Below are positions 12,121 to 56,202 of a stretch of 64,000 nucleotides of DNA, in pieces. Made by a program: the position numbers and the translations under genes. The stretch's first letter is position 1; each line of letters starts with the position of its first letter. The notes beneath the pieces were generated by a model, which made no database searches, was not told the DNA's origin, and was given only the letters and a program-made list of their open reading frames with translations. This DNA is from an uncultured Candidatus Saccharibacteria bacterium (lineage in GTDB: Bacteria > Patescibacteriota > Minisyncoccia > Phycocordibacterales > PALSA-1337), in assembly GCA_964357605.1 (NCBI GenBank), contig CAYHLX010000001.1:5159-69158 (forward strand), written 5' to 3'.

Positions 12121-15100
12121 ATGGCCCACCCAAAGACACTTCACAGCATCATCGCACTCATAGCCTGTGCAGGTATCATATTAGCAATTATATTTAGCAC
12201 TAACTCATCACCTGACTCTGTCTCTCTCACCCTCTCACCAGAGAGTAGATCAACTCCAGTCGGAGAAACATTCACTATAGACATAGTCCTCAATACCGCC
12301 AAACAAACAGTATACGGAGTAGACATCAATCGACTACGCTTTGATCCTCGTATTCTAGAGGTAGTTGATATAGATACAGCTACACCAGGAACACAAATAA
12401 CAGCTGGCTCCCTCATGGACGCTACAGTCTTCAACTCTGCTGACAATACTCTCGGTACTATACAGTTCTCTCAAGTCATGACTCCAGGTACCAGTGGAAC
12501 TAACTCATTTACTGGCTCTGGTACTCTCGCTACCGTCACCTTCAAGGTAGTAGCTGAAGGTAAATCAGACATATTCATTGACTTTACCCCTGGCTCAAGT
12601 ACAGCTTCAAATGTCGCTGGACAATCAGGCAATCTCCTATCAGTAGTCAATGGTGGATCATACAAGGGTACACGATCACTTCTCTCAACTATCACTTCTC
12701 AATCTCAAATGGCTGCTGTGGCTGACTTTAACTCTAGTCTCGTTGCTCACTATACTTTTGATGGTAATACCAATGACGGAGCTGGTTCTAACAATGGGAC
12801 TGCAAGTGGTGGACCGACGTATACTACAGGCAAAATTGGACAAGGGCTCAGTCTTGACGGTAGCGATGACAAGATAACTTTTACCGCATTCAATGTACCT
12901 TCAAGCTTTACCATATCAACATGGGTCAACCCTGGGTCAAGTCAATCAAGAGATTGGTCGCAGATTCTAGGGGAAGTTAATACGGGCAGTGGGTTACATT
13001 ATAAAAGAGGGGCAAATAAAATTTCCTATTATTTTTCTGGAGGTGATCATTTGACTAACGGATCTCTAAATGCGGGTCAGTGGCACCATGTTGCTTTGGT
13101 TCAAAACTCTGGTAATTATACGTTTTATATAAATGGTTCTGCTGATGCGAGTGGTACAGGAGGTGTGAGTTTCAATCCTTACATCATAGGTCACAATCAC
13201 TGGGGCGAAACATTTGCCGGTTCACTGGATGACATGCGCATCTACAATCGCGCGCTTGACTCGAGTGAAGTGAGTCAACTCTACGCTCTCGGCAGTGGAG
13301 GTGGTACACCCGCGCCAACACCGGATCCTACGCCTACTCCGATACCAGATCCGACACCAACGCCCAGTCCGACAACCTGTTCTTCCTTTACTTACTCCAG
13401 TTGGGGTACGTGCACAAATAGTACCCAAAGTCGTACCGTGACTTCTTCTTCACCTACTGGTTGTACTGGCGGATCACCGATAACTACTCAGTCTTGTGTG
13501 GTTACAACACCTACTCCGACACCACCTGTAGTAACACCAACACCTTCGCCAATTCCTGGAAACACGACATGTCAGGCAATCAATGGTCATAAGTGCTGGT
13601 ATGTAAATTCTTCAGCGACAGGGTTAAATAATGGTACATCTTGGCAAGATGCATGGAGAAGCTTTGCAGATGTTCAGTTAAAAAATCCCTACCGTGCGTG
13701 CGGCGCGCCTACAGGATGCCTCAATTCTGGGGATACACTCTATATTTCGGGCGGCCCTAGCGGATCCAGCAGAACTTATTCAGGTATTTCTTATACATCC
13801 CCTCAGGGAGTAGGATTTGTTTTTGATGTTGGCCATGAGGAAACTGCAAGGTATGCTACAACTCGTGCAGATGGGATTAAAATAAGGCCAGGACAAGATG
13901 CCGGGCACAATGGCAAAGTGATAATTGATGCCGGAGGGCAGGTAGGAATTGGAGCAAATAATTCTCAATATGTCACAATTGATGGGGAATATAATGGTCA
14001 GAGAAATATCGTTATCAGAAATTCATCTGCCGGAATTACCGTCGTTTCAAGTAATGATGCAATAATTCGCTACGTTGAGATTGATAACGTCTCTTCTATA
14101 GCCATATCGGCAGGACAAACACAAAGAGGAGGTGAAATAGCATACAATTATATCCATCAAGTTCGTGGCGAAGCGGCGATCAACTGCAATGGCACAAACA
14201 ATGAACAAGGAAGTCCCAATCATGGCTATGATAAGATGTTGATTCATCACAATGAAATTCAGCTCAATCGCTGGGATCCCAGTCTGGAACCTTCCAGGAA
14301 TGCTGCAGCTGATGGAATTGGTCCTGATGGAATACAGGGTTGCTATGGCCTGAGCTTCTATAACAATTACATTTATCACAAGCCGGGAATGCTCGCGCCA
14401 CGTTCACAGCATCCGGACATGATCCAATCCGGTGGGGCATACTTGAAAGTATATAATAACGTTTTTGAGAATATGACAGATTCTGCAGTGGATTTTGACT
14501 CACCTTTTGTTGGAAAGGTTAGAATATTCAACAACATATTTAAGTCAACACTCTATACAGGTATACCAAGCGGCATTCGCATGTATTCTTCTGGCACATG
14601 GGGTCCTTTTACAAGCCTAGATGATGTTTATATTCTCAACAATCTTTTTGTTGATACTGGTTATTCTGAACGGGGAGGAAGTCCGATAGGTTTTGGCGCA
14701 GGTTCTGTAACGGCATCAAATATTCACATACTCAACAATATATTCTACAACTCAGGGCATAGTAATTATGGGTCACTCATTAATTCGGCAGCTTCTTCTG
14801 GATTTACTCATTCTGATTTTGATATAGGATACAATCTTGTTGATGCTGGATTGCATGGCACGACTAATATCATTCTTGATGGCACTGCCTTTACACAGCA
14901 TCATCCTCTGAGCGGAAAACCTGCTTGGGTTTCGTATAGTGAAGCTTCACCATCTAATAATTTTAAATTAACGGGATCTGATACATTTGCAATCGATAAG
15001 GGAACAAACTTAACAAACTTGTGCAGTGTGATTGGTCTATCTGAGCTTTGCGCTGACGCAGAAAATAAACCGAGACCTTCTGTCGGAGCATGGGAAATAG

Positions 15101-16401
15101 GAACATACGAATACAACGGCTCTGGCGGAACGCCGACTCCACCTCCAGTAACGCCACCGCCACCGCCACCGCCTTCACCTTTATCCACTTACTACGTTTC
15201 TCCTTCAGGCAATGATTCAAACGCGGGAACATCAGCATCACCATTCCGTACTATCCAAAAAGCCGCTAACATAGTTATTCCTGGAGATACAGTCGTCGTT
15301 AGAAATGGAACATATACTGATACGGATGGAAATAATATCATAGCAACCATCGGTAGGGGCGGTGCGGCTGGAGCACCAGTAACTTTCCGTTCGGAAAATC
15401 CTTTCGGTGCCATATTGAGTGGAAACAATACTGCCGGATTCGGATTTATTTTTGGAAATAATATCAACTATGTCAACATAGAAGGATTTGAAATTAAAGA
15501 TATTGTTGAGGCAGGGATCAACATCAACGAATCAAATTCATATATTACTATTAAGGATAATCGTATTCACCACATTGGTCACATTCAGACACACACACTA
15601 TACGGCATGAGTTGTATTGATGTGGGAAGTAGGGCTCATCATATTACTGTTGCAGGCAATACTATTTATTCCTGCGGAAGGCTGAACCCAAATAATACAA
15701 ACCTTGAAATTCTGGACTCAACCTGTATTACGCCGGTTGGCTATGTCTTTCCTGGAAATGGCATCACATATTCAAAGGAAAACACTTGCTACAACCATGA
15801 TCATGGCATATATGTAAGAGGTGATGATATCAATATTACTAACAATACATTCTACGATATGAAATCTGGTTGGGGAGTGCATGTATATGATGATGCGGCT
15901 CTAAAAGAGCGTATTACTATCACTGGCAACACATTTGCAGATGCCAATCCACAAAGAAACGGCCAGATCATTATCGGTCCACAGACAAGCAATCTGCGTA
16001 TCGAAAGTAATATTTTCTACAATCCATCAGTCTCTGCCATCAGGCTCGGAGACACTTGTGCTGCAGCCGGTCTCACCAGTATCACTATACAGAACAACTC
16101 AACCAACATCGGAGATCTCATCTCAGGAGCCGACGTATCATGCGGGTATACTATCTCCGGCAATCTTCTCAATCAAAATTTCCAATTTGCAAATGAAGCA
16201 GGAAGAGATTATCGTCTCATATCCGGCCAACCTATCGTCAACAAACCAGGCGACTTCAACAGAGACGGAGCAGTCAATGCCCTAGACTTCTCACTCTTGT
16301 CAGGTGCCTGGAATACCAATACCTCTACATATGATCTAAACAGTGATGGTATTGTGAATACTCTAGACTATGTGATCATGGTGCAAAATTGGACGGGGTA
16401 G
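12121..16401 (+). CDS. Giant surface protein: N-terminal cohesin-like domain, LamG domain, PT linkers, Cys-containing module, two right-handed beta-helix regions, C-terminal dockerin
   Basis: Residues about 30-180 ('VSLTLSPESRSTPVGETFTIDIVLNTAKQTVYGVDINRLRFDP...GTIQFSQV...GSGTLATVTFKVVAEGKSDIFIDF') have cohesin-like beta-sandwich features. They are homologous to the N-terminal domains of 21969..23327, 23367..25040 and 25101..25808. LamG 'LDDMRIYNRALDSSEVSQLY'. 'SPFRTIQKAANIVIPGDTVVVRNGTY' is a typical beta-helix cap. The dockerin tail is identical to that of 9600..11990. Confidence 0.7.
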   Translation: MAHPKTLHSIIALIACAGIILAIIFSTNSSPDSVSLTLSPESRSTPVGETFTIDIVLNTAKQTVYGVDINRLRFDPRILEVVDIDTATPGTQITAGSLMDATVFNSADNTLGTIQFSQVMTPGTSGTNSFTGSGTLATVTFKVVAEGKSDIFIDFTPGSSTASNVAGQSGNLLSVVNGGSYKGTRSLLSTITSQSQMAAVADFNSSLVAHYTFDGNTNDGAGSNNGTASGGPTYTTGKIGQGLSLDGSDDKITFTAFNVPSSFTISTWVNPGSSQSRDWSQILGEVNTGSGLHYKRGANKISYYFSGGDHLTNGSLNAGQWHHVALVQNSGNYTFYINGSADASGTGGVSFNPYIIGHNHWGETFAGSLDDMRIYNRALDSSEVSQLYALGSGGGTPAPTPDPTPTPIPDPTPTPSPTTCSSFTYSSWGTCTNSTQSRTVTSSSPTGCTGGSPITTQSCVVTTPTPTPPVVTPTPSPIPGNTTCQAINGHKCWYVNSSATGLNNGTSWQDAWRSFADVQLKNPYRACGAPTGCLNSGDTLYISGGPSGSSRTYSGISYTSPQGVGFVFDVGHEETARYATTRADGIKIRPGQDAGHNGKVIIDAGGQVGIGANNSQYVTIDGEYNGQRNIVIRNSSAGITVVSSNDAIIRYVEIDNVSSIAISAGQTQRGGEIAYNYIHQVRGEAAINCNGTNNEQGSPNHGYDKMLIHHNEIQLNRWDPSLEPSRNAAADGIGPDGIQGCYGLSFYNNYIYHKPGMLAPRSQHPDMIQSGGAYLKVYNNVFENMTDSAVDFDSPFVGKVRIFNNIFKSTLYTGIPSGIRMYSSGTWGPFTSLDDVYILNNLFVDTGYSERGGSPIGFGAGSVTASNIHILNNIFYNSGHSNYGSLINSAASSGFTHSDFDIGYNLVDAGLHGTTNIILDGTAFTQHHPLSGKPAWVSYSEASPSNNFKLTGSDTFAIDKGTNLTNLCSVIGLSELCADAENKPRPSVGAWEIGTYEYNGSGGTPTPPPVTPPPPPPPSPLSTYYVSPSGNDSNAGTSASPFRTIQKAANIVIPGDTVVVRNGTYTDTDGNNIIATIGRGGAAGAPVTFRSENPFGAILSGNNTAGFGFIFGNNINYVNIEGFEIKDIVEAGININESNSYITIKDNRIHHIGHIQTHTLYGMSCIDVGSRAHHITVAGNTIYSCGRLNPNNTNLEILDSTCITPVGYVFPGNGITYSKENTCYNHDHGIYVRGDDINITNNTFYDMKSGWGVHVYDDAALKERITITGNTFADANPQRNGQIIIGPQTSNLRIESNIFYNPSVSAIRLGDTCAAAGLTSITIQNNSTNIGDLISGADVSCGYTISGNLLNQNFQFANEAGRDYRLISGQPIVNKPGDFNRDGAVNALDFSLLSGAWNTNTSTYDLNSDGIVNTLDYVIMVQNWTG
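16377..16401 (+). repeat. Direct repeat copy 1 (the dockerin-gene 3' end catggtgcaaaattggacggggtag) flanking the ATPase gene
   Basis: 24/25 identical to 17743..17767. The two copies bracket the AAA ATPase gene 16532..17725. Confidence 0.7.
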
Positions 16402-38020: not shown

Positions 38021-38093
38021 GCCACCTTAGCTCAGTTGGTAGAGCATCCGATTTGTAATCGGACGGTCGTCAGTTCAAGTCTGACAGGTGGCT
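38021..38093 (+). tRNA. tRNA-Thr (anticodon TGT)
   Basis: Manual cloverleaf: acceptor gccacct/aggtggc, D stem gctc/gagc, anticodon stem tccga/tcgga with loop ttTGTaa, T stem gtcag/ctgac with loop ttcaagt, 5-nt variable loop. No encoded CCA. Confidence 0.8.
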
Positions 38094-38152
38094 CAAGAAT
38101 GAGGGTTGTTGTGTAGCAAACACCCTGTGACTTTTAAGGAAGTTTTGTATAT

Positions 38153-38584
38153 ATGAGTTTTGTAACAAATAGAAAATGCATAGGCTGTAATAAGTCTCTT
38201 TTAACACGGAGCCAGCTTAAGTATTGTTCCCAACAATGCCAAGCTACAACAAAATATTATAAATCCATAGAAGAATGGAAATTCGGAATAAAAAATGGAT
38301 CACTTGGAATACAGACGAGAATAATATCCTCTTTTTTACGTAGATACTTATTTGAAAAGTATAAAAACAAGTGTTCCCAGTGCGGCTGGAATGAAAAGAA
38401 TCTAGTTTCAGGAAAAATTCCCCTAGAAGTTGATCATATTGATGGTAATTCTGAGAATAATTCGGAGGAAAATCTAAGACTCCTTTGTCCAAACTGCCAT
38501 TCCTTGACCCCGTATTTCAGAAATTTAAATAAAGGAAAAGGAAGACGATGGAGGATGAAAAATATTCAGAAGAGGATTAATTAA
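38153..38584 (+). CDS. HNH endonuclease
   Basis: N-terminal Cys4 'CIGCNKSL...CSQQC'. HNH core 'CSQCGWN...LEVDHIDGNSENNSEENLRLLCPNCH'. It lies immediately 3' of the tRNA gene. Confidence 0.8.
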   Translation: MSFVTNRKCIGCNKSLLTRSQLKYCSQQCQATTKYYKSIEEWKFGIKNGSLGIQTRIISSFLRRYLFEKYKNKCSQCGWNEKNLVSGKIPLEVDHIDGNSENNSEENLRLLCPNCHSLTPYFRNLNKGKGRRWRMKNIQKRIN

Positions 38585-38627
38585 AATTATAACTTTTTTT
38601 AAATGTATTTTAGTGTAAAATGTAAGT

Positions 38628-39068
38628 ATGGACTACAAAATTGGAAAGGATTTGACACAAGAAGCCCCACGAAGCCCAAAAGTGATGCTCGGAGGTTATG
38701 TTATCCTTGCACGCACACTCGATAAATGCCGTGCCTCTATATGGGGCAAGCTCGGAGAGTATGAATTTGATTGCGAACTTGATAACTATCTTTTTAATTT
38801 TAAAGGTTTAAAAGGAGAAGATTTTAAGAAGTTTGTTTCAGAAGGGTACCTTGATGAAGAGATATTAGACTGGGTTAATAAAAATGGAATTAAAAGAACA
38901 GATAAGGAAATTTCAGAATGGACTAAAAAACAGATGAAGCATAATTATGCTGATGATAAAGAAGGTAAAGAATGGTTGCGAGGTAAAAATAAAAAATTAG
39001 GTCTCCCTTTAGATGGAACTTTATTTGATTATCTAGAAGCAGATGACAAAGCTAGTTTTACTAGGTAG
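38628..39068 (+). CDS. Hypothetical protein (conserved DUF-type)
   Basis: 146 aa, 'LGGYVILARTLDKCRASIWGKLGEYEFDCELDNYLFNF'. No function recognised. Confidence 0.4.
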   Translation: MDYKIGKDLTQEAPRSPKVMLGGYVILARTLDKCRASIWGKLGEYEFDCELDNYLFNFKGLKGEDFKKFVSEGYLDEEILDWVNKNGIKRTDKEISEWTKKQMKHNYADDKEGKEWLRGKNKKLGLPLDGTLFDYLEADDKASFTR

Positions 39069-39079
39069 TTTTCTACTGT

Positions 39080-40213
39080 TTATCTTATTGTAGCCCTGAA
39101 GTTTTTTGTCGTAGCTTTTTCTATCTTCTTATGTAAGGCGTTTGTTTCGTCGTTTGTAAGCGTTCTATCCAGTGATCTATATGTAATGCGGTATGCATAG
39201 CTAACATTACCTTTGCCGAGCTTATTTTCATTTTCATACTTATCAATGAGATGAACCTCTTCGATGAGATCCGGTACTAATTCACGCACGAGATCAAAAT
39301 AGTCATTTGGGATAAAGGTATTTGGCACGATGAAAGAGATATCTCTTACTACTGCTGGATACTTACTGACTTCTACAAATTTTTGGCCAAGCTTGAGTTG
39401 TTTGGTAACTCGTGGGTCTTCTGACCACAATAGGCGGATGTCAGGAAGTTGCATGCTGATAATAGCCAGTCTTTCTAAACCAAAGCCGAAAGCCCAGCCA
39501 TTGTAGCCTTCCACTCCAAAATCTTTTAGAACTATCGGACGGGGTAGGCCACCTCCGAGGATTTCGATCCACTGACCACTGATTTCTACTTCTACCTCAA
39601 GGGATGGATCTGTGTAGGGGAAGGTGTCAACATTGAATCTAAATTTAGTCTCTTTGCCGAAAATACTCTGCACGATTTCAGAAAGGACAGCTTTGAGATC
39701 ATCTAAGACAACGGCTTTCTTATCATTTGGTACGAGGTAAAGCCCTCCCATTTGGTGGAAGATGTTCATATGATGACGATCGATCTCATCTTTTCGGTAA
39801 ACTTTTCCATAACACATCACTCCAACAGATTCTCTCTTGGCGATTTTCTTTTTTATTTCTGGAAGGTTGAGAAAGTAGTACCACATCACGGTATCGTGGG
39901 TACGAAGCACATTTTTGGAATCGATATAGTAAGTATCAGATTTACTGCGAGCGGGATGATCTGTAGCAAAGTTGAAAAGGTCAAAAAGAATATCGGTTCC
40001 AATTACTTCAGGAATATCAATATCATCAAAATCCTTAAGCAGAGGAAGAGAAGTGACTCTCTTCATAATCTCATTTAATGGACTACCAGGGGTTCTAGAG
40101 AGGTCTGGCATAGCCAGGTATCGTTTGATACGTTGGGCCTCTATATCCTCGCGTTTATTGAATTCAGTAAGAAGAGCTTTTTCTTCATCACGTGGAATAA
40201 TATAGTTTTTCAT
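39080..40213 (-). CDS. pheS: Single-chain (mitochondrial-type) phenylalanine--tRNA ligase: PheS-like class II catalytic core fused to a C-terminal FDX-ACB anticodon-binding domain
   Basis: 'FNFATDHPARSKSDTYYI' (motif 2 / HPAR) and 'GWAFGFGLERLAIISMQLPDIRLLWSEDPR' (motif 3). The C-terminus 'KYPAVVRDISFIVP...NDYFDLVRELVPDLIEEVHLIDKY...YRITYRSLDRTLTNDETNALHKKIE' closely resembles the FDX-ACB domain of mitochondrial PheRS. Start set to ATG 40213; the track ORF start at 40501 would overlap gyrB. Confidence 0.8.
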   Translation of the reverse strand: MKNYIIPRDEEKALLTEFNKREDIEAQRIKRYLAMPDLSRTPGSPLNEIMKRVTSLPLLKDFDDIDIPEVIGTDILFDLFNFATDHPARSKSDTYYIDSKNVLRTHDTVMWYYFLNLPEIKKKIAKRESVGVMCYGKVYRKDEIDRHHMNIFHQMGGLYLVPNDKKAVVLDDLKAVLSEIVQSIFGKETKFRFNVDTFPYTDPSLEVEVEISGQWIEILGGGLPRPIVLKDFGVEGYNGWAFGFGLERLAIISMQLPDIRLLWSEDPRVTKQLKLGQKFVEVSKYPAVVRDISFIVPNTFIPNDYFDLVRELVPDLIEEVHLIDKYENENKLGKGNVSYAYRITYRSLDRTLTNDETNALHKKIEKATTKNFRATIR

Positions 40214-40321
40214 GGATGTAAGTGTAGATAAAAAGTGGATAAAAGGCAAGAAATCAGGTCGTTTTTGGGGTGTGCAATTTGTCTTTCTTTTTGATATAAT
40301 ACCTCTACAAAACACAACAAA

Positions 40322-42427
40322 ATGGCTAAAGAAAAAGACAATTACGGTGCCGATTCCATCCAAGTTCTCGAAGGCCTTGAGCCAGTGCGAAAGCGTCCTG
40401 GTATGTACATCGGTACCACTGGTCCCGATGGTCTTCATCATTTGATTACTGAGGTTTTTGACAACTCTCGTGATGAAGCTATGGGAGGTTTTGCTGATCA
40501 CATAGAAGTAGCTCTACTTCCTCATAATCGGGTGAGGGTGGTGGACAACGGGCGAGGTATACCTGTGGATATCCACAAGACAACTAAAGTCTCTGCTCTA
40601 GAGACTATTATGACCGTTCTTCATGCTGGAGGAAAGTTTGGAGGAGAAGGAAGTGGATACAAAGTTTCCGGAGGTCTTCATGGGGTGGGAGCTTCAGTCG
40701 TTAATGCTTTGTCCGTTTATACTCAAGTTTGGGTTTATAAAGATGGAGATATCTATACCCAAGAATACTCTCAAGGAAAGAAAAAAGCCGCTGTCAAAAA
40801 AATCGGAAAAACTAAAGCCAAAGGGACAATTGTTACTTTTGAACCAGATGAGATTATTTTTAAGGAAATTAAATTTGATTTTAATAAGGTGGTGCATTCT
40901 TTGCGTCAGCAGGCTTATCTAGTTAAAGCCTTACGCATTACCGTCATAGATGCCAGGGATTATGTAGGAGAGGAAATTCCTTTTGCTAAAGACGGCTCTC
41001 TAGATATAGAAGCGGAAATAACTTATTTAAGCCAACTCAATCTCCAAGTTCCTTCCCAAACTTTCTATTTCGAAAATGGACTAACTTCGTTGGTAAAATT
41101 TAATAATCAAATACTTAAACCAATACATAAAAATATCTTTTATGTCGAAAAGAAAGTGGAGGGAGTTGAGTCAGTTGAAATAGCCTTACAATATGCTGAT
41201 GACATTTCTGCTCGTATTTTGCCTTTTGCCAACAATATCTATAATCCCGAAGGAGGTACACATATCACTGGTTTCAAAACAGCTCTTACGAGAACACTTA
41301 ATACCTATGCTAAAAATAATAACCTAGCGAAAAACGGTGATGAGACATTTACCGGAGACGATGTGCTAGAAGGCCTCACTGCAGTTATTTCTGTCAAACT
41401 TCGTGAAATACAATTTGAAGGACAAACTAAAGCTAAATTGGGGTCAGTGGAAGCTCAAAGCGCGGTGGCCACAGTTTTTGGAGAAACCTTTGCGGCTTTT
41501 CTAGAAGAAAATCCAGATGATGCCAAAGCCATCATCACCAAAGTCGTTTTGGCGATGAAGGCGCGTAAAGCGGCCAAAGCGGCCAAGGACAGTGTTTTGA
41601 GAAAAGGGGCTCTCGAAGGTATGACTTTGCCAGGAAAGTTGGCGGATTGCCAATCAAACGATGCTTCAGAGTCTGAACTATTTATTGTGGAGGGAGATTC
41701 TGCGGGTGGTACCGCCAAAACTGGACGTGATCGACGTACTCAGGCCATCCTGCCATTGCGAGGAAAGATTTTGAATATTGAAAGAGCGAGACTTGACCGT
41801 ATGTTGGGTTCGGAGCAGATTAAAAATCTCGTTTTGGCTTTTGGTACGGCGATTGGAGATACTTTTGATATTTCCAAACTCCGTTACCACAAGATTATTC
41901 TAGCGACAGATGCTGACGTGGACGGAGCACACATTCGTACCTTGATTCTTACTTTGCTCTACAGATATTTTAAACCGCTGGTAGAAGGAGGATTTGTTTA
42001 TATTGCTCAACCACCACTTTATAAAGTGAAGAGAGGGAAGGAAGTGTTGTATTTTTATAACGAAGAAGAAAAAGTCAAAGCTCTTGGTAAGGATATTGGA
42101 AATGAAGAGGAGATTATTAATGACAATGAGGCGAGAGAACAACTTTTAGAGGCGGCGGAAGCTCCGGCTGATGAAGAAGAGGTGGAAGCTGAAACAAAAG
42201 GGAAGAAAGCTAAAATCGTCATACAGAGATATAAGGGTCTGGGAGAGATGAATGCCGAAGAGTTGTGGGAAACAACCATGGATCCGGAAAAGAGGATCTT
42301 AAAGCAGGTAAATATTGATGATGCTCAAGAGGCCGATAAGGTATTTGATATGCTCATGGGTACGGATGTGCCATCTAGAAAGATGTTCATCCAATCCAAC
42401 GCCAAGAAGGCCAATATTGACCTATAG
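40322..42427 (+). CDS. gyrB: DNA gyrase subunit B (or topoisomerase IV subunit B)
   Basis: 'YGADSIQVLEGLEPVRKRPGMYIGTTGPDGLHHLITEVFDNSRDEAMGG', 'LHGVGASVVNALS', Toprim 'LFIVEGDSAGGTAK' and 'ILATDADVDGAHIRTLILT'. Confidence 0.9.
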   Translation: MAKEKDNYGADSIQVLEGLEPVRKRPGMYIGTTGPDGLHHLITEVFDNSRDEAMGGFADHIEVALLPHNRVRVVDNGRGIPVDIHKTTKVSALETIMTVLHAGGKFGGEGSGYKVSGGLHGVGASVVNALSVYTQVWVYKDGDIYTQEYSQGKKKAAVKKIGKTKAKGTIVTFEPDEIIFKEIKFDFNKVVHSLRQQAYLVKALRITVIDARDYVGEEIPFAKDGSLDIEAEITYLSQLNLQVPSQTFYFENGLTSLVKFNNQILKPIHKNIFYVEKKVEGVESVEIALQYADDISARILPFANNIYNPEGGTHITGFKTALTRTLNTYAKNNNLAKNGDETFTGDDVLEGLTAVISVKLREIQFEGQTKAKLGSVEAQSAVATVFGETFAAFLEENPDDAKAIITKVVLAMKARKAAKAAKDSVLRKGALEGMTLPGKLADCQSNDASESELFIVEGDSAGGTAKTGRDRRTQAILPLRGKILNIERARLDRMLGSEQIKNLVLAFGTAIGDTFDISKLRYHKIILATDADVDGAHIRTLILTLLYRYFKPLVEGGFVYIAQPPLYKVKRGKEVLYFYNEEEKVKALGKDIGNEEEIINDNEAREQLLEAAEAPADEEEVEAETKGKKAKIVIQRYKGLGEMNAEELWETTMDPEKRILKQVNIDDAQEADKVFDMLMGTDVPSRKMFIQSNAKKANIDL

Positions 42428-43570: not shown

Positions 43571-43601
43571 AAAAACTCCGGATCAAACCGGAGTTTTTCT
43601 T
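43571..43601. terminator. Bidirectional rho-independent terminator between convergent genes
   Basis: aaaaactccggatcaaaccggagtttttc: a 6-bp stem ctccgg/ccggag with an A-run 5' and a T-run 3'. Confidence 0.6.
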
Positions 43602-45342
43602 ATTTCTTTTCCTTTATTTCCTTAACCAACTTTTCTAGAACTTCTTCATTACTTAATTGACCGATCTGTCCGTGATCACGACTCTCTAGAGTGACCTTGC
43701 CAGCGTCGATGTCTTTATCTCCGATGATGATGAAGTAGGGAATATGTTCATTTTTTGCTTCTCTTACTTTTTTACCAAAATTATTTGGAGATAGATCGAT
43801 ATCCACTCTTATATCTATTTCTCTCATCTTTTCAAGAAGAGCAAAAGCCTTTTCATGATGAGTATCTCCAATAGGGATGATACGCGCTTGGACTGGTGAA
43901 AGCCAAAGAGGGAATTTTCCAGCAAAATGTTCTACGAGAATACCAATAAATCTTTCTAAAGATCCGTAAATTACTCGATGTATCACTACGGGCATTTTTC
44001 TCAAACCATCTTTGTCTGTATAGTGGAGATCAAATCGTTGTGGAAGTTGAAAATCGAGTTGCATCGTACCCATTTGCCAGTCTCGTCCTAGAGAATCCTT
44101 CATGACAATATCTATCTTAGGACCGTAGAAAGCTCCATCACCTTCCGCGATAACATAATCTTTTCCAGACTTAGCCAAAATTTCTTTCAACACCTTCTCT
44201 GCTCTATCCCAAGTCTCTATCTCTCCCAGAAAGCTTTTTGGTCGAGTTCCGAGTCTGAATTTGTATTCTAAATTAAATATTCCGTAAAATCTTTTACAAA
44301 TAGTCATGATATGCTCGTATTCGGAAGCAATCATGTCTTCAGAAATAAAATTATGAGAATCATCTTGCTGAAATGATCGACAACGTAAAAGTCCATTTAA
44401 AGTACCCGATCTCTCGTAGCGATGGAGGCGGTCTGTATCTGAGAGTCTGAGCGGAAGATCTCTATAGCTAATTTGCATCGAATCAAACACTACCATGGCA
44501 TTAGGACAATTCATGGGTTTTATTCCATACACTTCATTCTCTCCCATATTAGCAATAAACATATCTTCCTTGTAGTGGTCCCAGTGGCCTGATTTTTTCC
44601 ATAGCTCTGCTTTGTTTACTAGGGGGCTGCAGATTTCTTTATATCCCATCACCGCATGCTCCTTGCGCCAGTACTCCTCGAGTTCTTTGTAAAGAACCAA
44701 ACCTTTTGGTAGCCAATAGGGCATTCCAGGAGAAGTCTCGTGGAACATGAACAGTCCCAACTCCCTGCCTAGTTTTTTATGATCCCTTTTTTCGGCCTCG
44801 ATTCTCATGGCCTCATAATCATCCAACTCAAGCTTTGATCCAAAGGCTAGTCCATAGATGCGAGTGAGCATTTTATTCTCCTCACTGCCTCGCCAGTAGG
44901 CTCCAGCTACTCGGGAAAGTTTAAAGGAGTCATGAGGAATTTCTTTGGCGGGATTTTCGGCATGACCTCCGCGACAGAGGTCGGTGAAATTTCCACAGGT
45001 ATAGAGAGTAATTTTTTCTCCTTTGGCCACGATCTCTCCTATGAGTTCAAGTTTGTAAGGATTACCTTTAAAATGTTCCTTGGCTTCTTTCTCGCTCACT
45101 TCTTTGTGAGTAAATTTGGTCCAGGACTTGAGATGACTTTTCATTTTCTTTTCGATGGCAGGGAGGTCTTTGTCAGAAATTTTTACGTCGGCAGGGAATT
45201 CGAAATCATAATAGAAACCATCATCAATAGCCGGTCCGATGGTGTTTTTGGTTTCAGGATGCAATTCTAGAACCGCTGAAGCGAGTAAGTGGGCTAGAGT
45301 GTGGCGGATGTGGGAAAGTTGTTCTGGGGGTTGGGGGTTCAT
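43600..45342 (-). CDS. thrS: Threonine--tRNA ligase
   Basis: 'HIRHTLAHLLASAVLELHP' (second-additional/editing domain), class II core 'RVAGAYWRG' ... 'FYGPKIDI', and a C-terminal anticodon-binding domain. Start set to ATG 45342 ('MNPQPPEQ'); the track ORF begins at an upstream TTG. Confidence 0.9.
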   Translation of the reverse strand: MNPQPPEQLSHIRHTLAHLLASAVLELHPETKNTIGPAIDDGFYYDFEFPADVKISDKDLPAIEKKMKSHLKSWTKFTHKEVSEKEAKEHFKGNPYKLELIGEIVAKGEKITLYTCGNFTDLCRGGHAENPAKEIPHDSFKLSRVAGAYWRGSEENKMLTRIYGLAFGSKLELDDYEAMRIEAEKRDHKKLGRELGLFMFHETSPGMPYWLPKGLVLYKELEEYWRKEHAVMGYKEICSPLVNKAELWKKSGHWDHYKEDMFIANMGENEVYGIKPMNCPNAMVVFDSMQISYRDLPLRLSDTDRLHRYERSGTLNGLLRCRSFQQDDSHNFISEDMIASEYEHIMTICKRFYGIFNLEYKFRLGTRPKSFLGEIETWDRAEKVLKEILAKSGKDYVIAEGDGAFYGPKIDIVMKDSLGRDWQMGTMQLDFQLPQRFDLHYTDKDGLRKMPVVIHRVIYGSLERFIGILVEHFAGKFPLWLSPVQARIIPIGDTHHEKAFALLEKMREIDIRVDIDLSPNNFGKKVREAKNEHIPYFIIIGDKDIDAGKVTLESRDHGQIGQLSNEEVLEKLVKEIKEKK

Positions 45343-45471
45343 GGGTACTACTATATCATTGCTAAAATAAATAATAAAGAACGTAAATAACTTAAACAAT
45401 TTCTCTAAGATTGATTGCCACCACCAAAAGAAGTACAATTAAGCCAAATTAACATAACTTCCATAATAAAT

Positions 45472-50974: not shown

Positions 50975-51736
50975 GTGATAACGATGAACACATCGATTAC
51001 ATCGAACCAGACAGAACAAGTAGCAACCTTCACTGCAGATGCCGCCCGCTCCGGCGCCCGAAACGTCATGGAACGAGTCGCGAAGATTGAAGGTGTCTCC
51101 CGAGACAGCCTTCAGGCAAGAGTCATCGAAAAAGGCAACGAGCTGACCAAGTTCGTAAGTCGGGAAGTTGAAGCTCTTCTGGAGAGCAAGCTTCTCGCAA
51201 TGCTGATGATCATGCTCGACCACCTCAAGGTGATCATGGTAGGATCAGTGAAAATTGCGACTATGCCCCGCATGAAAGTTGTTGATTGCCTCAAGCAAGA
51301 CGGCGTGATCATCGGCTGGCGTGATGACGATCTGGATGGCTGGCTCTCGGAATATGTTTCAGCGATGCCTACAGGGACAATCAACTGCATGGAACTTACG
51401 AAGCCCGAAGGCACAACTTTCCGCCAGATGGCTGAAGCGGCCCTAGGCATGGCCGGGGCTAACGACGCAGAGCTGAAAAAAGCTCTTCGTGAACGTGGAA
51501 TGACCTTCCACCTTGAACAAGTTCGGGATCTCATCACGAGAACCGAAGCTAAAGAGGAGACAGGCTTCCATAAGGACGGCAAAGCCAACCTCCTTTTTAT
51601 CGAGGATGAGAATGGGGAAGTCTTTGGGCTCCGCGTCCGTCGGGATGACTGCTGGGGGGTGCGCGTCGACTCCTTTGGCAACGACCGCGAGTGGCTTCAG
51701 GGCCGTCGTTTCTTCTCTCGCAACATGCCTGCGTAA
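50975..51736 (+). CDS. DGR target (variable) protein; C-terminal about 36 aa encoded by the VR
   Basis: The VR occupies the last about 106 nt before the stop. The VR-encoded tail 'VFGLRVRRDDCWGVRVDSFGNDREWLQGRRFFSRN' corresponds to the TR-encoded 'IFGLNVNRNDYWKVNVNSFDNDNEWNQGNRFFSRN' (AAC/Asn-rich, as is usual for DGR templates). GC content is visibly higher than in flanking genes. No signal peptide is evident. An alternative start at ATG 50984 has a GGTG Shine-Dalgarno. Confidence 0.75.
   Translation: MITMNTSITSNQTEQVATFTADAARSGARNVMERVAKIEGVSRDSLQARVIEKGNELTKFVSREVEALLESKLLAMLMIMLDHLKVIMVGSVKIATMPRMKVVDCLKQDGVIIGWRDDDLDGWLSEYVSAMPTGTINCMELTKPEGTTFRQMAEAALGMAGANDAELKKALRERGMTFHLEQVRDLITRTEAKEETGFHKDGKANLLFIEDENGEVFGLRVRRDDCWGVRVDSFGNDREWLQGRRFFSRNMPA
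51619..51724 (+). repeat. DGR variable region (VR)
   Basis: Manual alignment to 52014..52119 gives 85/106 identical. Every one of the 21 differences is VR G/C/T opposite a TR A (g/a, cg/aa, cg/aa, g/a, g/a, g/a, gg/aa, cg/aa, g/a, g/a, cg/aa, ct/aa, cg/aa, c/a). Confidence 0.85.
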
Positions 51737-51742
51737 GCAGGC
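51727..51742 (+). promoter_or_regulatory. GC-rich hairpin immediately 3' of VR (gcctgc GTAA gcaggc), with the TAA stop codon inside the tetraloop
   Basis: Read directly. A 6-bp perfect stem with a 4-nt loop in this position matches the hairpin/cruciform element known to flank VR in DGRs and to promote target recognition. Confidence 0.5.
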
Positions 51743-51779
51743 AAGGTTTAGATCCTTGGGTCTTTGGACACTTGGATTC

Positions 51780-51812
51780 AAAGGGGCGTTCGCAAGAATG
51801 CCCCTTTCTGCT
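51780..51812 (+). terminator. Rho-independent terminator of the target gene
   Basis: aaggggcgttcgcaagaatgcccctttctgc: stem aggggc/gcccct followed by a T-rich tract. Confidence 0.5.
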
Positions 51813-52013
51813 ATACTCAAAAAGGCTTTGTTGACATTTCCGTTCACTAAATAGTGGATTGAGGTGACAAAGTCTTTTTCAATCGTTTTATTTTGTTGAA
51901 AAATAAAAAAAGAAAAAAGTTGGTACATGAAACTGGTGAGTGATAGGACTCAAAATAATATACAATCTGGAGACAACCTCAACAGACAGTGACATGGAAG
52001 GTTTTGTGTACAT

Positions 52014-52119
52014 AATCTTTGGGCTCAACGTCAATCGGAATGACTACTGGAAGGTGAACGTCAACTCCTTTGACAACGACAACGAGTGGAATCAGGGCAA
52101 TCGTTTCTTCTCTCGAAAC
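52014..52119 (+). repeat. DGR template region (TR)
   Basis: Adenine-rich cognate of the VR (see the VR feature). It lies in non-coding context between the target gene and the avd/RT genes. Confidence 0.85.
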
Positions 52120-52128
52120 TGTTTCTTT

Positions 52129-52148
52129 CTCCCGCATCAGAGCGGGAG
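52129..52148 (+). promoter_or_regulatory. Hairpin 10 nt downstream of TR (ctcccgc atcaga gcgggag) followed by ttttctttc
   Basis: Perfect 7-bp stem, read directly. It is a plus-strand terminator-like or structured 'spacer' element of the TR RNA, and it overlaps the 3' end of the antisense avd ORF. Confidence 0.4.
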
Positions 52149-52436
52149 TTTTCTTTCTAGAGGAAGGTTTTGTAGTTCCTTATGCCATCCACCGATCATT
52201 TTTCCTGGTTCAATTAAAGTCTTTGAAAGAGCTATGTATCTTTTGTCATCAAGTACTTTTATTTCCCAAGCTACATTTAGGAAAATTTTTAAACAATCTA
52301 GTTTGGTTACTGCTTTCTTTAAATGCGGCATTTTTTCCGTTCTGGGGCTCAAGGCACTCAGACTCAGATTTTCTATAAGTTCTATGAAAAGTGAGTCTAT
52401 TTTTCCGGCAATGGTGTGTCTTTTGGATTTTGGCAT
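52137..52436 (-). CDS. avd: Avd-like accessory variability determinant (four-helix-bundle protein); true start probably upstream at 52524 but out of frame because of a G10 tract
   Basis: The C-terminal 'KLDCLKIFLNVAWEIKVLDDKRYIALSKTLIEPGKMIGGWHKEL' matches the conserved ...L...lgyl.eeey..l...ieeigkmLngli of Avd / 23S-IVS four-helix-bundle proteins. 'MPKSKRHTIAGKIDSLFIELIENL' aligns to the FPKEEKYgLtsQlRRAavSIpaNIAEG helix. The in-frame upstream sequence 'AHSLPVLLKLISSYKLWQQYFDS' supplies helix 1 but has no start codon. An ATG-ATG (52524/52521) sits in the -1 frame just across a G10 run. Confidence 0.6.
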   Translation of the reverse strand: MPKSKRHTIAGKIDSLFIELIENLSLSALSPRTEKMPHLKKAVTKLDCLKIFLNVAWEIKVLDDKRYIALSKTLIEPGKMIGGWHKELQNLPLERKLPL

Positions 52437-52505
52437 GCTATCAAAATACTGTTGCCAAAGTTTATAACTTGAGATTAACTTTAATAAAACTGGTAAGCTG
52501 TGTGC

Positions 52506-52515
52506 GGGGGGGGGG
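52506..52515. repeat. G10 (C10 on the avd strand) homopolymer in the 31-nt divergent intergenic/5' region between avd and the RT
   Basis: Read directly: tgtgc gggggggggg tgaca. This is an exceptional run in a roughly 40% GC genome. With 9 G the avd ORF would start MMSPPPAHSLPV... and be 128 aa. Confidence 0.9.
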
Positions 52516-52555
52516 TGACATCATAGGTTTTAGGTTATCATAATAAGGTTTATAT

Positions 52556-53548
52556 ATGAAGACATATGTTGATATTATTTCTACAAACAATTTACTCAAA
52601 GTTTGGAAAGAATTTTTACGTGGAAAGAAAAAACGTAAGGATGTGAATGTATTTTCACTGCATCTTATGGACAATATCTTTAGGCTTCATAAAGATATGA
52701 AAAATAAAGAATATAAACATGATGAATATGAAGCATTTGGTATTTCTGATCCAAAGCCTCGCAAGATTCACAAGGCTACAGTCAGAGATCGCCTAGTTCA
52801 CCATGTCTTGTATGAAGCCTTATCCCCACAGTTCAATCAAAGATTTATTTCTGATTCATATTCTTGTCGTCTCAATAAAGGGATGCACCGCGCCCTCGCA
52901 AGATTTAAAATATATTCAGGAAAGGTGAGTAAAAACAATACCAAAACATGCTGGATTTTGAAATGTGATATTAGAAAATTCTTTGCTTCTATTGATCAAT
53001 CTATTCTCACATCCATTCTTGAAAAATATATTTCTGATAAAGACATTCTTTGGCTGCTGTCTAATGTCATACATAGTTTCCATAGTACTGCTCCAGGAAA
53101 AGGACTACCTCTGGGTAATCTGACCTCACAATTGTTGGTCAATATTTACATGAACGAATTTGATCAATTTGTAAAACATAAACTCAAAATAAAATGCTAT
53201 ATTCGTTATGCCGATGATTTTGTTGTTTTTGATTCTTGCAAAAGTAATTTGGAAAATCTTATAATTATTTTCAGGGAATTTCTAAAAGAAAATCTAAAGC
53301 TTGACCTGCATCCCAATAAAGTTTTCATAAAAACTCTAGCATCAGGTGTTGATTTTCTCGGCTGGGTTCATTTTCCTAACCACCGAGTGTTGCGTACAGT
53401 TACAAAAAAGAGAATGATGAAGAAAATAAAATCAGGTTTTCGGCCAGAAGTCATAGCTTCGTATATTGGTATGCTTGAACATGGAGATGCTTATACCTTG
53501 CGAAAGAATATAGAAAATCTTCCAGAAATCGAGATAAAGCCGAAATAA
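52556..53548 (+). CDS. DGR-type reverse transcriptase
   Basis: 'GLPLGNLTSQLLVNIYMNEFD' is the DGR-specific motif 4 (I/LGxxxSQ). 'IRYADDFVVF' is YxDD motif 5. 'ISDPKPRKIHKATVRDRLVHHVLYEAL' covers motifs 1-2. The compact 330-aa size and the absence of maturase/endonuclease or intron RNA features fit a DGR RT. Confidence 0.85.
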   Translation: MKTYVDIISTNNLLKVWKEFLRGKKKRKDVNVFSLHLMDNIFRLHKDMKNKEYKHDEYEAFGISDPKPRKIHKATVRDRLVHHVLYEALSPQFNQRFISDSYSCRLNKGMHRALARFKIYSGKVSKNNTKTCWILKCDIRKFFASIDQSILTSILEKYISDKDILWLLSNVIHSFHSTAPGKGLPLGNLTSQLLVNIYMNEFDQFVKHKLKIKCYIRYADDFVVFDSCKSNLENLIIIFREFLKENLKLDLHPNKVFIKTLASGVDFLGWVHFPNHRVLRTVTKKRMMKKIKSGFRPEVIASYIGMLEHGDAYTLRKNIENLPEIEIKPK

Positions 53549-55305: not shown

Positions 55306-56202
55306 ATGGCCAATAGACACCTCTCAAGATCAGTCGTCCTCCAATCACTCTTTGAGTGGGACTTTCGTGGACAGAAGGATAAAGAGGCCAAAGACATTAT
55401 TATTCGTAATGCTAAAGAGTTTGCTACGGGCATGGGAGATATTTCTTTTATAGAAGATCTCATGCTCAATGTTTTATCTAAAAAACCGGAACTAGACAAA
55501 ATTATTACCAAAGCGGCCCCAGATTGGCCCTTAGAAAAGATCTCTGTTATAGACAGAAATGTTTTGCGTATGGGCTTATATGAGCTTCTTTTTGCTGATC
55601 GAGAAGAAGTACCAGCTAAGGTGGCGATAAATGAGGCGATAGAGCTAGCCAAGGCTTTTGGTGGAGAGAATAGCGGTAAGTTTGTAAACGGCGTTCTAGG
55701 CTCTGTTTACAAGGAATTGGGTGAGCCTGGCAAAGACTCTTCCCCAAAAAAGAAGAAGAAAATTGAGGATATTCCATACGAGGACATGCCTATTCAGAAT
55801 CTCGGTGGGGCGGTGGTTTATGCAAAAAAAGAAAAAGAGATTTATCTAGCTTTTGTTCATGATATTTTTGGACACTGGACTCTTTCCAAAGGCAAACTTG
55901 AGGGTACGGAAGATGTGAGAAGTGGAACGGTTCGAGAGATCAAAGAAGAGATGGGTTTGGATATAGAGATAGAGCAGGATCTAGGGATGAATGAATATAT
56001 TGCTAATGATCCGGAGAAGGGTAAGATCAGAAAACAAGTCCACTATTTTCTGGCTCAGGCAAAATTTGACACCATCAAGCTCGGTCCGAGCGGAGGTTTG
56101 GATGATGCTAAATGGTTTAAGTTAGCAGACATTCTTGAACTTAATTTTTATAATGATATAGTGCCGATTGTGACGAAGTCGGTTATGCTTTTGAGTAAAT
56201 AA
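55306..56202 (+). CDS. nusB: NusB antitermination factor fused to a C-terminal NUDIX hydrolase domain
   Basis: N-terminal about 140 aa 'RSVVLQSLFEWDF...RNVLRMGLYELLFADREEVPAKVAINEAIELAKAFGGENSGKFVNGVLGSV' is NusB. C-terminal 'GKLEGTEDVRSGTVREIKEEMGL' is a complete Nudix box GX5EX7REUXEEXGU. Confidence 0.8.
   Translation: MANRHLSRSVVLQSLFEWDFRGQKDKEAKDIIIRNAKEFATGMGDISFIEDLMLNVLSKKPELDKIITKAAPDWPLEKISVIDRNVLRMGLYELLFADREEVPAKVAINEAIELAKAFGGENSGKFVNGVLGSVYKELGEPGKDSSPKKKKKIEDIPYEDMPIQNLGGAVVYAKKEKEIYLAFVHDIFGHWTLSKGKLEGTEDVRSGTVREIKEEMGLDIEIEQDLGMNEYIANDPEKGKIRKQVHYFLAQAKFDTIKLGPSGGLDDAKWFKLADILELNFYNDIVPIVTKSVMLLSK

Follow-up and report, generated by a model that had tools for sequence, protein, structure and literature searches.

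A mitochondrial-type single-chain phenylalanyl-tRNA synthetase as the probable housekeeping enzyme of a groundwater Patescibacteria genome

The phenylalanyl-tRNA synthetase (PheRS) of bacteria is normally an (alpha-beta)2 enzyme composed of PheS and PheT, and the monomeric PheRS is treated in reviews as mitochondrial and unique (PMC3275996). What is then the role of a gene of the monomeric type that lies on a bacterial chromosome, and from where might it have come? Such a gene occupies positions 39080-40213 on the minus strand of a 64-kb stretch of contig CAYHLX010000001.1, which is called the window below. It most probably encodes a functional single-chain PheRS (PheRS-M type) that serves translation as the housekeeping PheRS of a Patescibacteria cell. 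That this enzyme is also the sole PheRS of the genome is probable as well, although somewhat less assured. The housekeeping role is proposed because the active site is intact, the gene stands among core genes in genomes of 0.7-0.8 Mb, no competing candidate was seen, and there is a precedent: the monomeric mitochondrial PheRS has full activity, can charge tRNAPhe of bacteria and has repeatedly taken the place of alpha/beta enzymes in organelles, including plastids (PMC3275996, PMC4394434, PMC4494062).

The longest mechanical reading of the open reading frame (ORF) starts with a GTG at 40501 and runs on the minus strand down to 39080. The limits given above are preferred because the ATG at 40213 yields a protein of 377 amino acids, as long as most of its close homologues. 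An earlier sequence-only reading of this DNA had described a PheS-like core joined directly to a C-terminal FDX-ACB anticodon-binding (ACB) domain. The Pfam matches bear this out, as PF01409 covers residues 44-272 and PF03147 covers residues 283-377 (Table 1). The hinge between the two, residues 273-282, joins the C-terminal helix of the PheS module (DIRLLWSEDPRVTKQ) to the anticodon-binding domain. All strings quoted in the sequence-only reading are present in the protein (DHPAR at residue 85, GWAFGFGLERL at 239-249, DISF at 291, and both YRITYR and RTL in the C-terminal domain), and its assignment of GFGLERL to motif 3 stands. Its assignment of HPAR to motif 2 does not: HPAR is a conserved PheS signature upstream of class II motif 2, and motif 2 of this enzyme is GKVYRKDEIDRHHMNIFHQMGG (residues 136-157). 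None of the other PheT domains, namely B1, B2, the editing domain B3/B4, B5 and B6/7, was found in the 377-residue protein by Pfam or with a PheT profile hidden Markov model (HMM) made from nine sequences, and this profile matches the protein in its C-terminal part only. The first 43 residues, as modelled, appear to stand in place of the long coiled-coil of bacterial PheS.

The alignment of the protein with its homologues shows that the class II motif residues and the residues of the phenylalanine pocket are all intact. None of 40 aligned bacterial, viral and eukaryotic homologues differs at H86 and R89 of the HPAR signature, at the motif 2 arginine R140, at H148, F152 or Q154, or at G243 and R248 of motif 3. 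T201 in FPYTDPS and A241 in GWAFGFG align with T251 and A294 of E. coli PheS, which are the residues whose mutation relaxes the specificity for phenylalanine. A pheS allele of Schaalia with relaxed specificity carries T275A/A322G (preprint, PMC13622651), and these are taken as the equivalent positions by presumption and not by alignment.

The likeness of the C-terminus to that of mitochondrial PheRS, which had been called striking before any comparison was made, holds in sequence, in fold and in phylogeny. In the C-terminal domain, the identity is 44% (75 bits) to the domain of human mitochondrial PheRS (mtPheRS), versus 26% (37 bits) to the B8 domain of E. coli PheT. In the core, the C-terminal half shares 45% identity with the human enzyme versus 38% with E. 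coli PheS, and the N-terminal half shares 33% with each of them. When the protein was compared with the PDB by phmmer, six human mtPheRS entries ranked at the top (198 bits, E about 2e-57). Among bacterial PheS alpha chains, the highest score was 121 bits (PheS chains 110-121), and six PheT beta chains were matched via B8 alone, with 23-30 bits. Among the NCBIfam models, the 377-residue protein scores highest with TIGR00469 pheS_mito (225.9 bits against a cut-off of 258.35), which is level with NF051887 SrmL (225.4 against 300). TIGR00468 pheS gives 163.1 against 237.45. A cluster representative that is 58% identical, P0121, lies over the pheS_mito cut-off with 264.3 bits. A conventional PheS alpha subunit was considered and rejected, as the pheS score is under its cut-off, the FDX-ACB domain adds 95 residues, the long N-terminal coiled-coil is missing and no pheT lies nearby.

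The structure of the protein was predicted with AlphaFold2 (AF2) from an alignment of 40 sequences and compared with the PDB by Foldseek. The model has a mean predicted local distance difference test score (pLDDT) of 94.5 and a predicted template modelling score (pTM) of 0.88. In Foldseek, every one of its top hits is human mtPheRS. With the closed apo form of that enzyme, 3CMQ, the model superposes at a template modelling (TM) score of 0.81 and a root-mean-square deviation of 2.7 Å over about 386 columns, versus a TM score of 0.60 for the open tRNA-bound form, 3TUP. The alpha chains of bacterial PheS superpose on the core alone, with a TMq of about 0.54. The predicted fold is thus that of the closed form of human mtPheRS, in which the ACB domain would be packed on the core.

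By analogy with the yeast and human enzymes, it is possible to describe how the protein might work. It would act as a monomer, in the core of which phenylalanine is activated by ATP. A rotation about the hinge of about 10 residues (273-282) would carry the ACB domain out of the closed position and into the open one, where it reaches the GAA anticodon (G34). The core would read G1-C72/A73 and then charge the 3' end of the tRNA with phenylalanine. As the B3/B4 site is missing, there would be no cis editing of Tyr-tRNAPhe, and tyrosine would have to be rejected by the synthetic site alone. In these genomes, the single-chain enzyme would have taken over from the (alpha-beta)2 PheS/PheT.

The host is a groundwater Patescibacteria metagenome-assembled genome (MAG). 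NCBI/ENA lists the identical protein under the title 'hypothetical protein AAB917_00480 [Patescibacteria group bacterium]', and a 12-kb contig from Hainich groundwater also encodes it. The database of proteins clustered at 90% contains more than 7,000 homologous clusters, and the best 120 of them are 70-100% identical and all have both Pfam domains. At least 343 GTDB species genomes, mostly of Paceibacteria/Parcubacteria, hold a relative of the gene. The best 80 of the 343 are 64-89% identical, and nearly all of these are titled as Patescibacteria or as unnamed bacteria; the titles include Nomura-, Taylor-, Zambryski-, Kaiser-, Colwell- and Adlerbacteria, Paceibacterota and similar. Three of the 80 are complete chromosomes of 0.72-0.83 Mb, in agreement with the reduced genome that the sequence-only reading had supposed for the host. 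A search from a more distant member, P0124, extended the range to Wolfe-, Staskawicz-, Nealson- and Portnoybacteria, the homologues of which share about 50% of their residues with P0124. A homologue of 456 amino acids, P0128 (L084 9463-10833 and L085 154-1524), has 13 in-frame TGA codons at conserved glycines and therefore belongs to a lineage of the Gracilibacteria or Absconditabacteria type that uses genetic code 25. The single-chain PheRS is the standard form across Paceibacteria/Parcubacteria and in at least one code-25 lineage of Patescibacteria.

The source database had rendered the 13 TGA codons of P0128 as tryptophan. A 4.2-kb contig titled Nitrospira sp. (L044) encodes a Patescibacteria-type PheRS with 68% identity to the window protein, and its title probably results from mis-binning. 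A record titled Oligoflexia bacterium (L087) carries a PheRS of the Patescibacteria type as well, and both contigs belong to MAGs placed in phyla outside the Candidate Phyla Radiation (CPR).

The gene order around the PheRS gene is conserved. The divergent neighbour is gyrB in 64 of 82 related loci. On the opposite side, S2 and EF-Ts are found in 42-45 of the 82, and the gene of threonyl-tRNA synthetase (ThrRS) lies at most 6 kb away in 26. From this synteny we conclude that the PheRS gene has been inherited vertically as part of the core genome and is neither mobile nor a recent import.

It had also been noted that no pheT is adjacent to the gene. None was detected anywhere in the 64-kb window by tblastn, by Pfam scans of the large ORFs or with the PheT profile HMM, and the window contains no second PheS core or FDX-ACB domain. 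The flanks of 81 related loci, up to 10 kb on each side of the PheRS gene and about 1.2 Mb in total, were searched with E. coli PheS and PheT and with the same profile, and no pheS or pheT and no PheT domain B1, B3_4 or B5 was found in them. In these flanks, the only matches are the PheRS gene and two short tRNA_bind ORFs that stand alone. The infC-rpmI-rplT-pheST context is absent from every related locus examined; in the four annotated loci of the outgroups used below, pheS and pheT are adjacent or one gene apart. PheRS beta has been reported in other lineages of the CPR (PMC5370408), and a replacement of the alpha/beta enzyme would therefore be lineage-specific within Patescibacteria.

The two stand-alone tRNA_bind ORFs lie directly upstream of the PheRS gene in two related genomes (L076 9617-9979 and L074 about 4697-5032). 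The ORF resembles domain B2 of PheT (PF01588, E 2e-16), and it might be a trans-acting tRNA-binding helper of the minimal PheRS.

The following points weigh against a housekeeping PheRS in this genome. We infer its activity, oligomeric state and substrate by analogy with characterised enzymes. The 377-residue protein is under the curated cut-off of every NCBIfam model and has an equal score to the 'PheS-related mystery ligase SrmL', and a non-canonical paralogue family of apparently the same architecture therefore exists in bacteria. The trees described below were made by neighbour joining with simple distances, from outgroups without conventional Patescibacteria PheS/PheT, and they include no SrmL member. 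The pheT-free flanks of about 1.2 Mb represent about 2% of each of the 81 genomes and are syntenic, which makes them weak evidence. Neither the window nor the related loci yielded a tRNAPhe gene from which the identity elements of this tRNA could be read.

The alternative that survives best is an accessory PheS-related ligase like SrmL, which would coexist with PheS/PheT encoded elsewhere and have a role other than charging tRNAPhe for translation. The SrmL profile, of about 349 positions, spans both the core and the C-terminal domain (query residues 69-368 on profile positions 40-346), and the overall architecture of SrmL, as read from this alignment, appears to be that of the window protein. 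In its favour, the window protein has equal scores with SrmL and pheS_mito and reaches neither cut-off, SrmL outscores pheS_mito in two other bacterial members, P0124 and P0128, the search for pheST covered the window and the flanks, and a beta subunit is reported from other CPR lineages, as mentioned above. Nevertheless, such a ligase is unlikely. The SrmL cut-off of 300 is reached neither by the window protein nor by any of the 10 representatives scored (195-274 bits), while P0121 does pass the cut-off of pheS_mito. The catalytic and phenylalanine-pocket residues are all kept. A redundant synthetase is improbable in a neighbourhood of gyrB, S2-EF-Ts and ThrRS in genomes of 0.7-0.8 Mb, and the flanks contain no fragment of pheT. 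The 'Oligoflexia' homologue P0124 did not lead to a true SrmL sequence: outside the small subgroup to which it belongs (P0290-P0298, 58-67% identity), the proteins related to it proved to be from further Parcubacteria, at about 50% identity. A full-text literature search found no paper on SrmL.

The relation of the window protein to the mitochondrial enzyme can be asked from the phylogeny. An HMMER scan of 1.84 billion cluster representatives gave 210 matches at E <=1e-30. Among the best 150 of these, most full-length sequences have the core-plus-ACB organisation; coverage is good for both domains in 73, and many of the others are fragmentary. The matches form three groups: Patescibacteria, eukaryotic mitochondrial enzymes of about 370-450 amino acids (fern, chytrid, choanoflagellate, locust, amphioxus and Vitrella), and compact forms of about 350 amino acids. 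Neighbour-joining bootstrap trees were calculated from Kimura distances with eight conventional pairs of PheS core and PheT B8 from six phyla as outgroups. These were taken from Gamma-, Beta- and Alphaproteobacteria, Bacilli, Clostridia, Fusobacteriota, Actinomycetota and Campylobacterota, out of records mislabelled 'plasmid'.

The sequence-only reading had called for both domains to be placed against conventional PheS and PheT. In these trees all single-chain forms fall together, with a bootstrap of 100% for all columns, 100% for the core and 72% for the ACB domain, and the stem branch of the clade is long (0.42). The monophyly against eight outgroups leads to the conclusion that the fusion of PheS with the ACB domain arose, as far as these sequences can tell, once. 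Inside the clade, the Patescibacteria sequences (all columns 80%, core 97%, ACB 2%) and the eukaryotic plus viral sequences (96%, 94% and 12%, respectively) are reciprocally monophyletic, the root lies between them, and the window protein is outside the eukaryotic clade. The Patescibacteria enzymes are accordingly a sister clade of the mitochondrial and viral enzymes in these trees and are not nested among them. The junction is also common to the Patescibacteria and human enzymes, which share the RF/V-x-KQ helix and the motif KF-x3-SKYPAV.

Against this single origin, one has to weigh a second fusion event, convergent with the mitochondrial PheRS, in which the Patescibacteria lineage would have joined its own pheS to the B8 end of its pheT. 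This would accommodate the N-terminal half of the core, which is as close to E. coli as to human, and it draws on the outgroups, which contain no Patescibacteria PheS/PheT, and on the weak internal resolution of the ACB-only tree. The clade of single-chain forms and its long stem contradict it, as do the shared junction motif and the ACB domain, which is far closer to the human domain than to B8 of E. coli or to the six bacterial B8 domains in the PDB. Convergence is therefore considered even less likely than an SrmL-like ligase.

Single-chain PheRS genes are frequent in large viruses too. They were found on 45 viral contigs of IMG/VR (L097-L141), many of which are 200-536 kb long, several of which are giant-virus MAGs and one of which reaches 1.47 Mb, and on the 634-kb phage LR745206.1. 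Two phage-like contigs of 160 and 341 kb (L083 and L086) encode the compact PheRS of about 350 amino acids, and the copies from phage-like contigs, P0139 and P0140, fall in the eukaryote-side clade. Like the window protein, the viral enzymes of huge phages and giant-virus MAGs are compact, have two domains and are without the mitochondrial insertion described below. They differ from it in being only 29-41% identical to it, in passing the pheS_mito cut-off and in their position in the eukaryote-side clade.

In spite of these viral genes, a recent horizontal gain, with a eukaryote or a large virus as donor, is hardly credible, as is contamination or mis-binning of the contig, and both were rejected as contradicted by synteny and clade structure: the viral and eukaryotic copies are 31-41% identical and belong to the other clade, the Patescibacteria copies form a deep clade in which synteny is kept over 64-100% identity, the gene stands amid CPR housekeeping genes in a window of uniform GC content, and the TGA-containing copy of the code-25 lineage implies a long residence.

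The origin of the mitochondrial enzyme is a separate matter. It is conceivable, though on balance doubtful, that the single-chain PheRS was invented once outside the eukaryotes, in an early Patescibacteria lineage or in its viruses, and that the eukaryotic mitochondrial PheRS came from such a donor by horizontal transfer and not from a fusion of alphaproteobacterial pheS and pheT. The reciprocal monophyly of the two clades and the depth of the bacterial one, which spans deep Patescibacteria including the code-25 lineage, would fit this origin; the trees themselves give no direction of transfer.

The comparison with known systems can be summarised as follows. Like the mitochondrial PheRS (human FARS2 and yeast MSF1; 3CMQ/3TUP; TIGR00469; PheRS-M), the window PheRS is one chain with a PheS module and a B8-type FDX-ACB domain and without other beta domains (PMC3275996), and the junction and hinge are shared. 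Unlike it, the window PheRS is encoded on a bacterial chromosome, has no targeting presequence, and is shorter because it has no counterpart of the insertion by which the human alignment is broken in two between motifs 2 and 3. Its first 43 residues are unmatched, as the phmmer alignment to the human enzyme starts at query residue 57, and it belongs to the separate sister clade (80-97%) and stays under the TIGR00469 cut-off. With the bacterial (alpha-beta)2 PheRS (TIGR00468 plus TIGR00472; 3PCO, 1PYS) it shares a core homologous to PheS (31-38% identity to E. coli), a C-terminus homologous to B8 of PheT (26%), and the same motif and specificity residues. It differs from that enzyme in the absence of the N-terminal PheS coiled-coil, of a separate beta subunit and hence of B1, B2, B3/B4, B5 and B6/7, and of an adjacent pheT.

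The kind of enzyme is thus a known one (PheRS-M / FARS2 / MSF1), and what is new is an under-described bacterial member of it, the sequences of which are public by the thousands. AARS Online lists PheRS-M with FARS2/3CMQ only (PMC11580382), and the full-text literature search found no paper on a mitochondrial-type PheRS in Patescibacteria/CPR or in other bacteria. JGI labels these proteins 'phenylalanyl-tRNA synthetase alpha chain'. As the family slips between the cut-offs set for TIGR00469, TIGR00468 and NF051887, NCBI mostly labels them 'hypothetical protein'. Marker-gene sets that expect pheS and pheT may undercount the completeness of such Patescibacteria genomes. The one-piece design is conserved throughout a bacterial radiation of very large size and occurs in huge phages and giant viruses as well. 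The origin of FARS2 becomes testable with the Patescibacteria clade as the closest outgroup to the mitochondrial enzyme, and this clade can polarise the changes in FARS2, namely how editing was lost and how the hinge movement and the insertion arose. The 377-residue protein is predicted to be a compact natural tRNAPhe-charging enzyme that could be used in structural and engineering work.

Table 1. Positions of the PheRS gene, its parts and other features in the window
Feature	Position	Strand	Basis or detail
Complete single-chain PheRS gene, 377 aa	39080..40213	minus	ORF and translation; stop codon 39080-39082
PheRS N-terminal region, residues 1-43, predicted short strand and two helices	40085..40213	minus	AF2 E3-5, H9-18, H24-34, pLDDT 90-95; outside the Pfam core domain
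Class II PheS-type catalytic module, residues 44-272	39398..40084	minus	PF01409 (tRNA-synt_2d), E 2.9e-54
Sites in the catalytic module			HPAR signature 86-89; motif 2 136-157; FPYTDPS 198-204; motif 3 GWAFGFGLERL 239-249 (residues)
Linker/hinge, residues 273-282 (LKLGQKFVEV)	39368..39397	minus	Aligns with human ...LKQF...VKFQPL SKYPAV; pLDDT 88-93
FDX-ACB (PheT B8-like) anticodon-binding domain, residues 283-377	39083..39367	minus	PF03147, E 6.2e-23
Divergent intergenic region between PheRS gene and gyrB, 108 bp	40214..40321	.	ORF map
gyrB	40322-42427	plus	ORF map
HNH-endonuclease ORF	38153-38584		Between PheRS gene and EF-Ts
DUF5069 ORF	38628-39068		Between PheRS gene and EF-Ts
thrS	43600-45438	minus	Upstream of PheRS gene
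Retroelement target ORF	50975-51736
Retroelement variable repeat	51621-51724
Retroelement template repeat	52016-52119
Retroelement reverse transcriptase	52556-53548		RVT_1

The divergent intergenic region of 108 bp is presumed to be the promoter region. The sole promoter-like match in it is a 9-of-12 match, and such matches are no commoner than in shuffled sequence. The scan for terminators near the PheRS gene gave results at chance level. No Rfam leader or T-box was found by the gene, where Rfam gave only a tRNA-Thr.

The stretch between the PheRS gene and EF-Ts (38021-39068) contains this tRNA-Thr(TGT), an ORF of an HNH endonuclease and a DUF5069 ORF. An HNH ORF lies near the PheRS gene in 9 of the 82 related loci and a DUF5069 ORF in 3, and this scarcity marks the spacer as a variable insertion spot. 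On the other side, thrS is on the same strand as the PheRS gene and upstream of it, with gyrB and a gene with a PKD domain between them. This arrangement faintly recalls the E. coli thrS-infC-rpmI-rplT-pheST cluster, which may be a coincidence. The rest of the window holds CPR housekeeping genes (gyrB, ThrRS, DnaE, RF, S2, EF-Ts, L25, L31, TGT, RNase R, RNase III and SMC), and the GC content is even across the 64 kb, at about 0.4.

The window has some further features. A diversity-generating retroelement occupies positions 50975-53548. Its variable and template repeats are 104 nt each, and all 19 mismatches between them (19/19) are at adenines of the template. Between positions 853 and 25040, there is a run of large proteins of 450-1426 amino acids, most of which have a Laminin_G_3 domain and five of which have a C-terminal dockerin, and a protein with a cohesin and a beta-helix is encoded at 12121-16401. 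The proteins of this region suggest a cohesin-dockerin assembly on the cell surface, encoded in a Patescibacteria genome. Finally, one ORF at 55306-56202 combines a NusB domain (residues 7-136) with a NUDIX hydrolase domain (residues 170-284).

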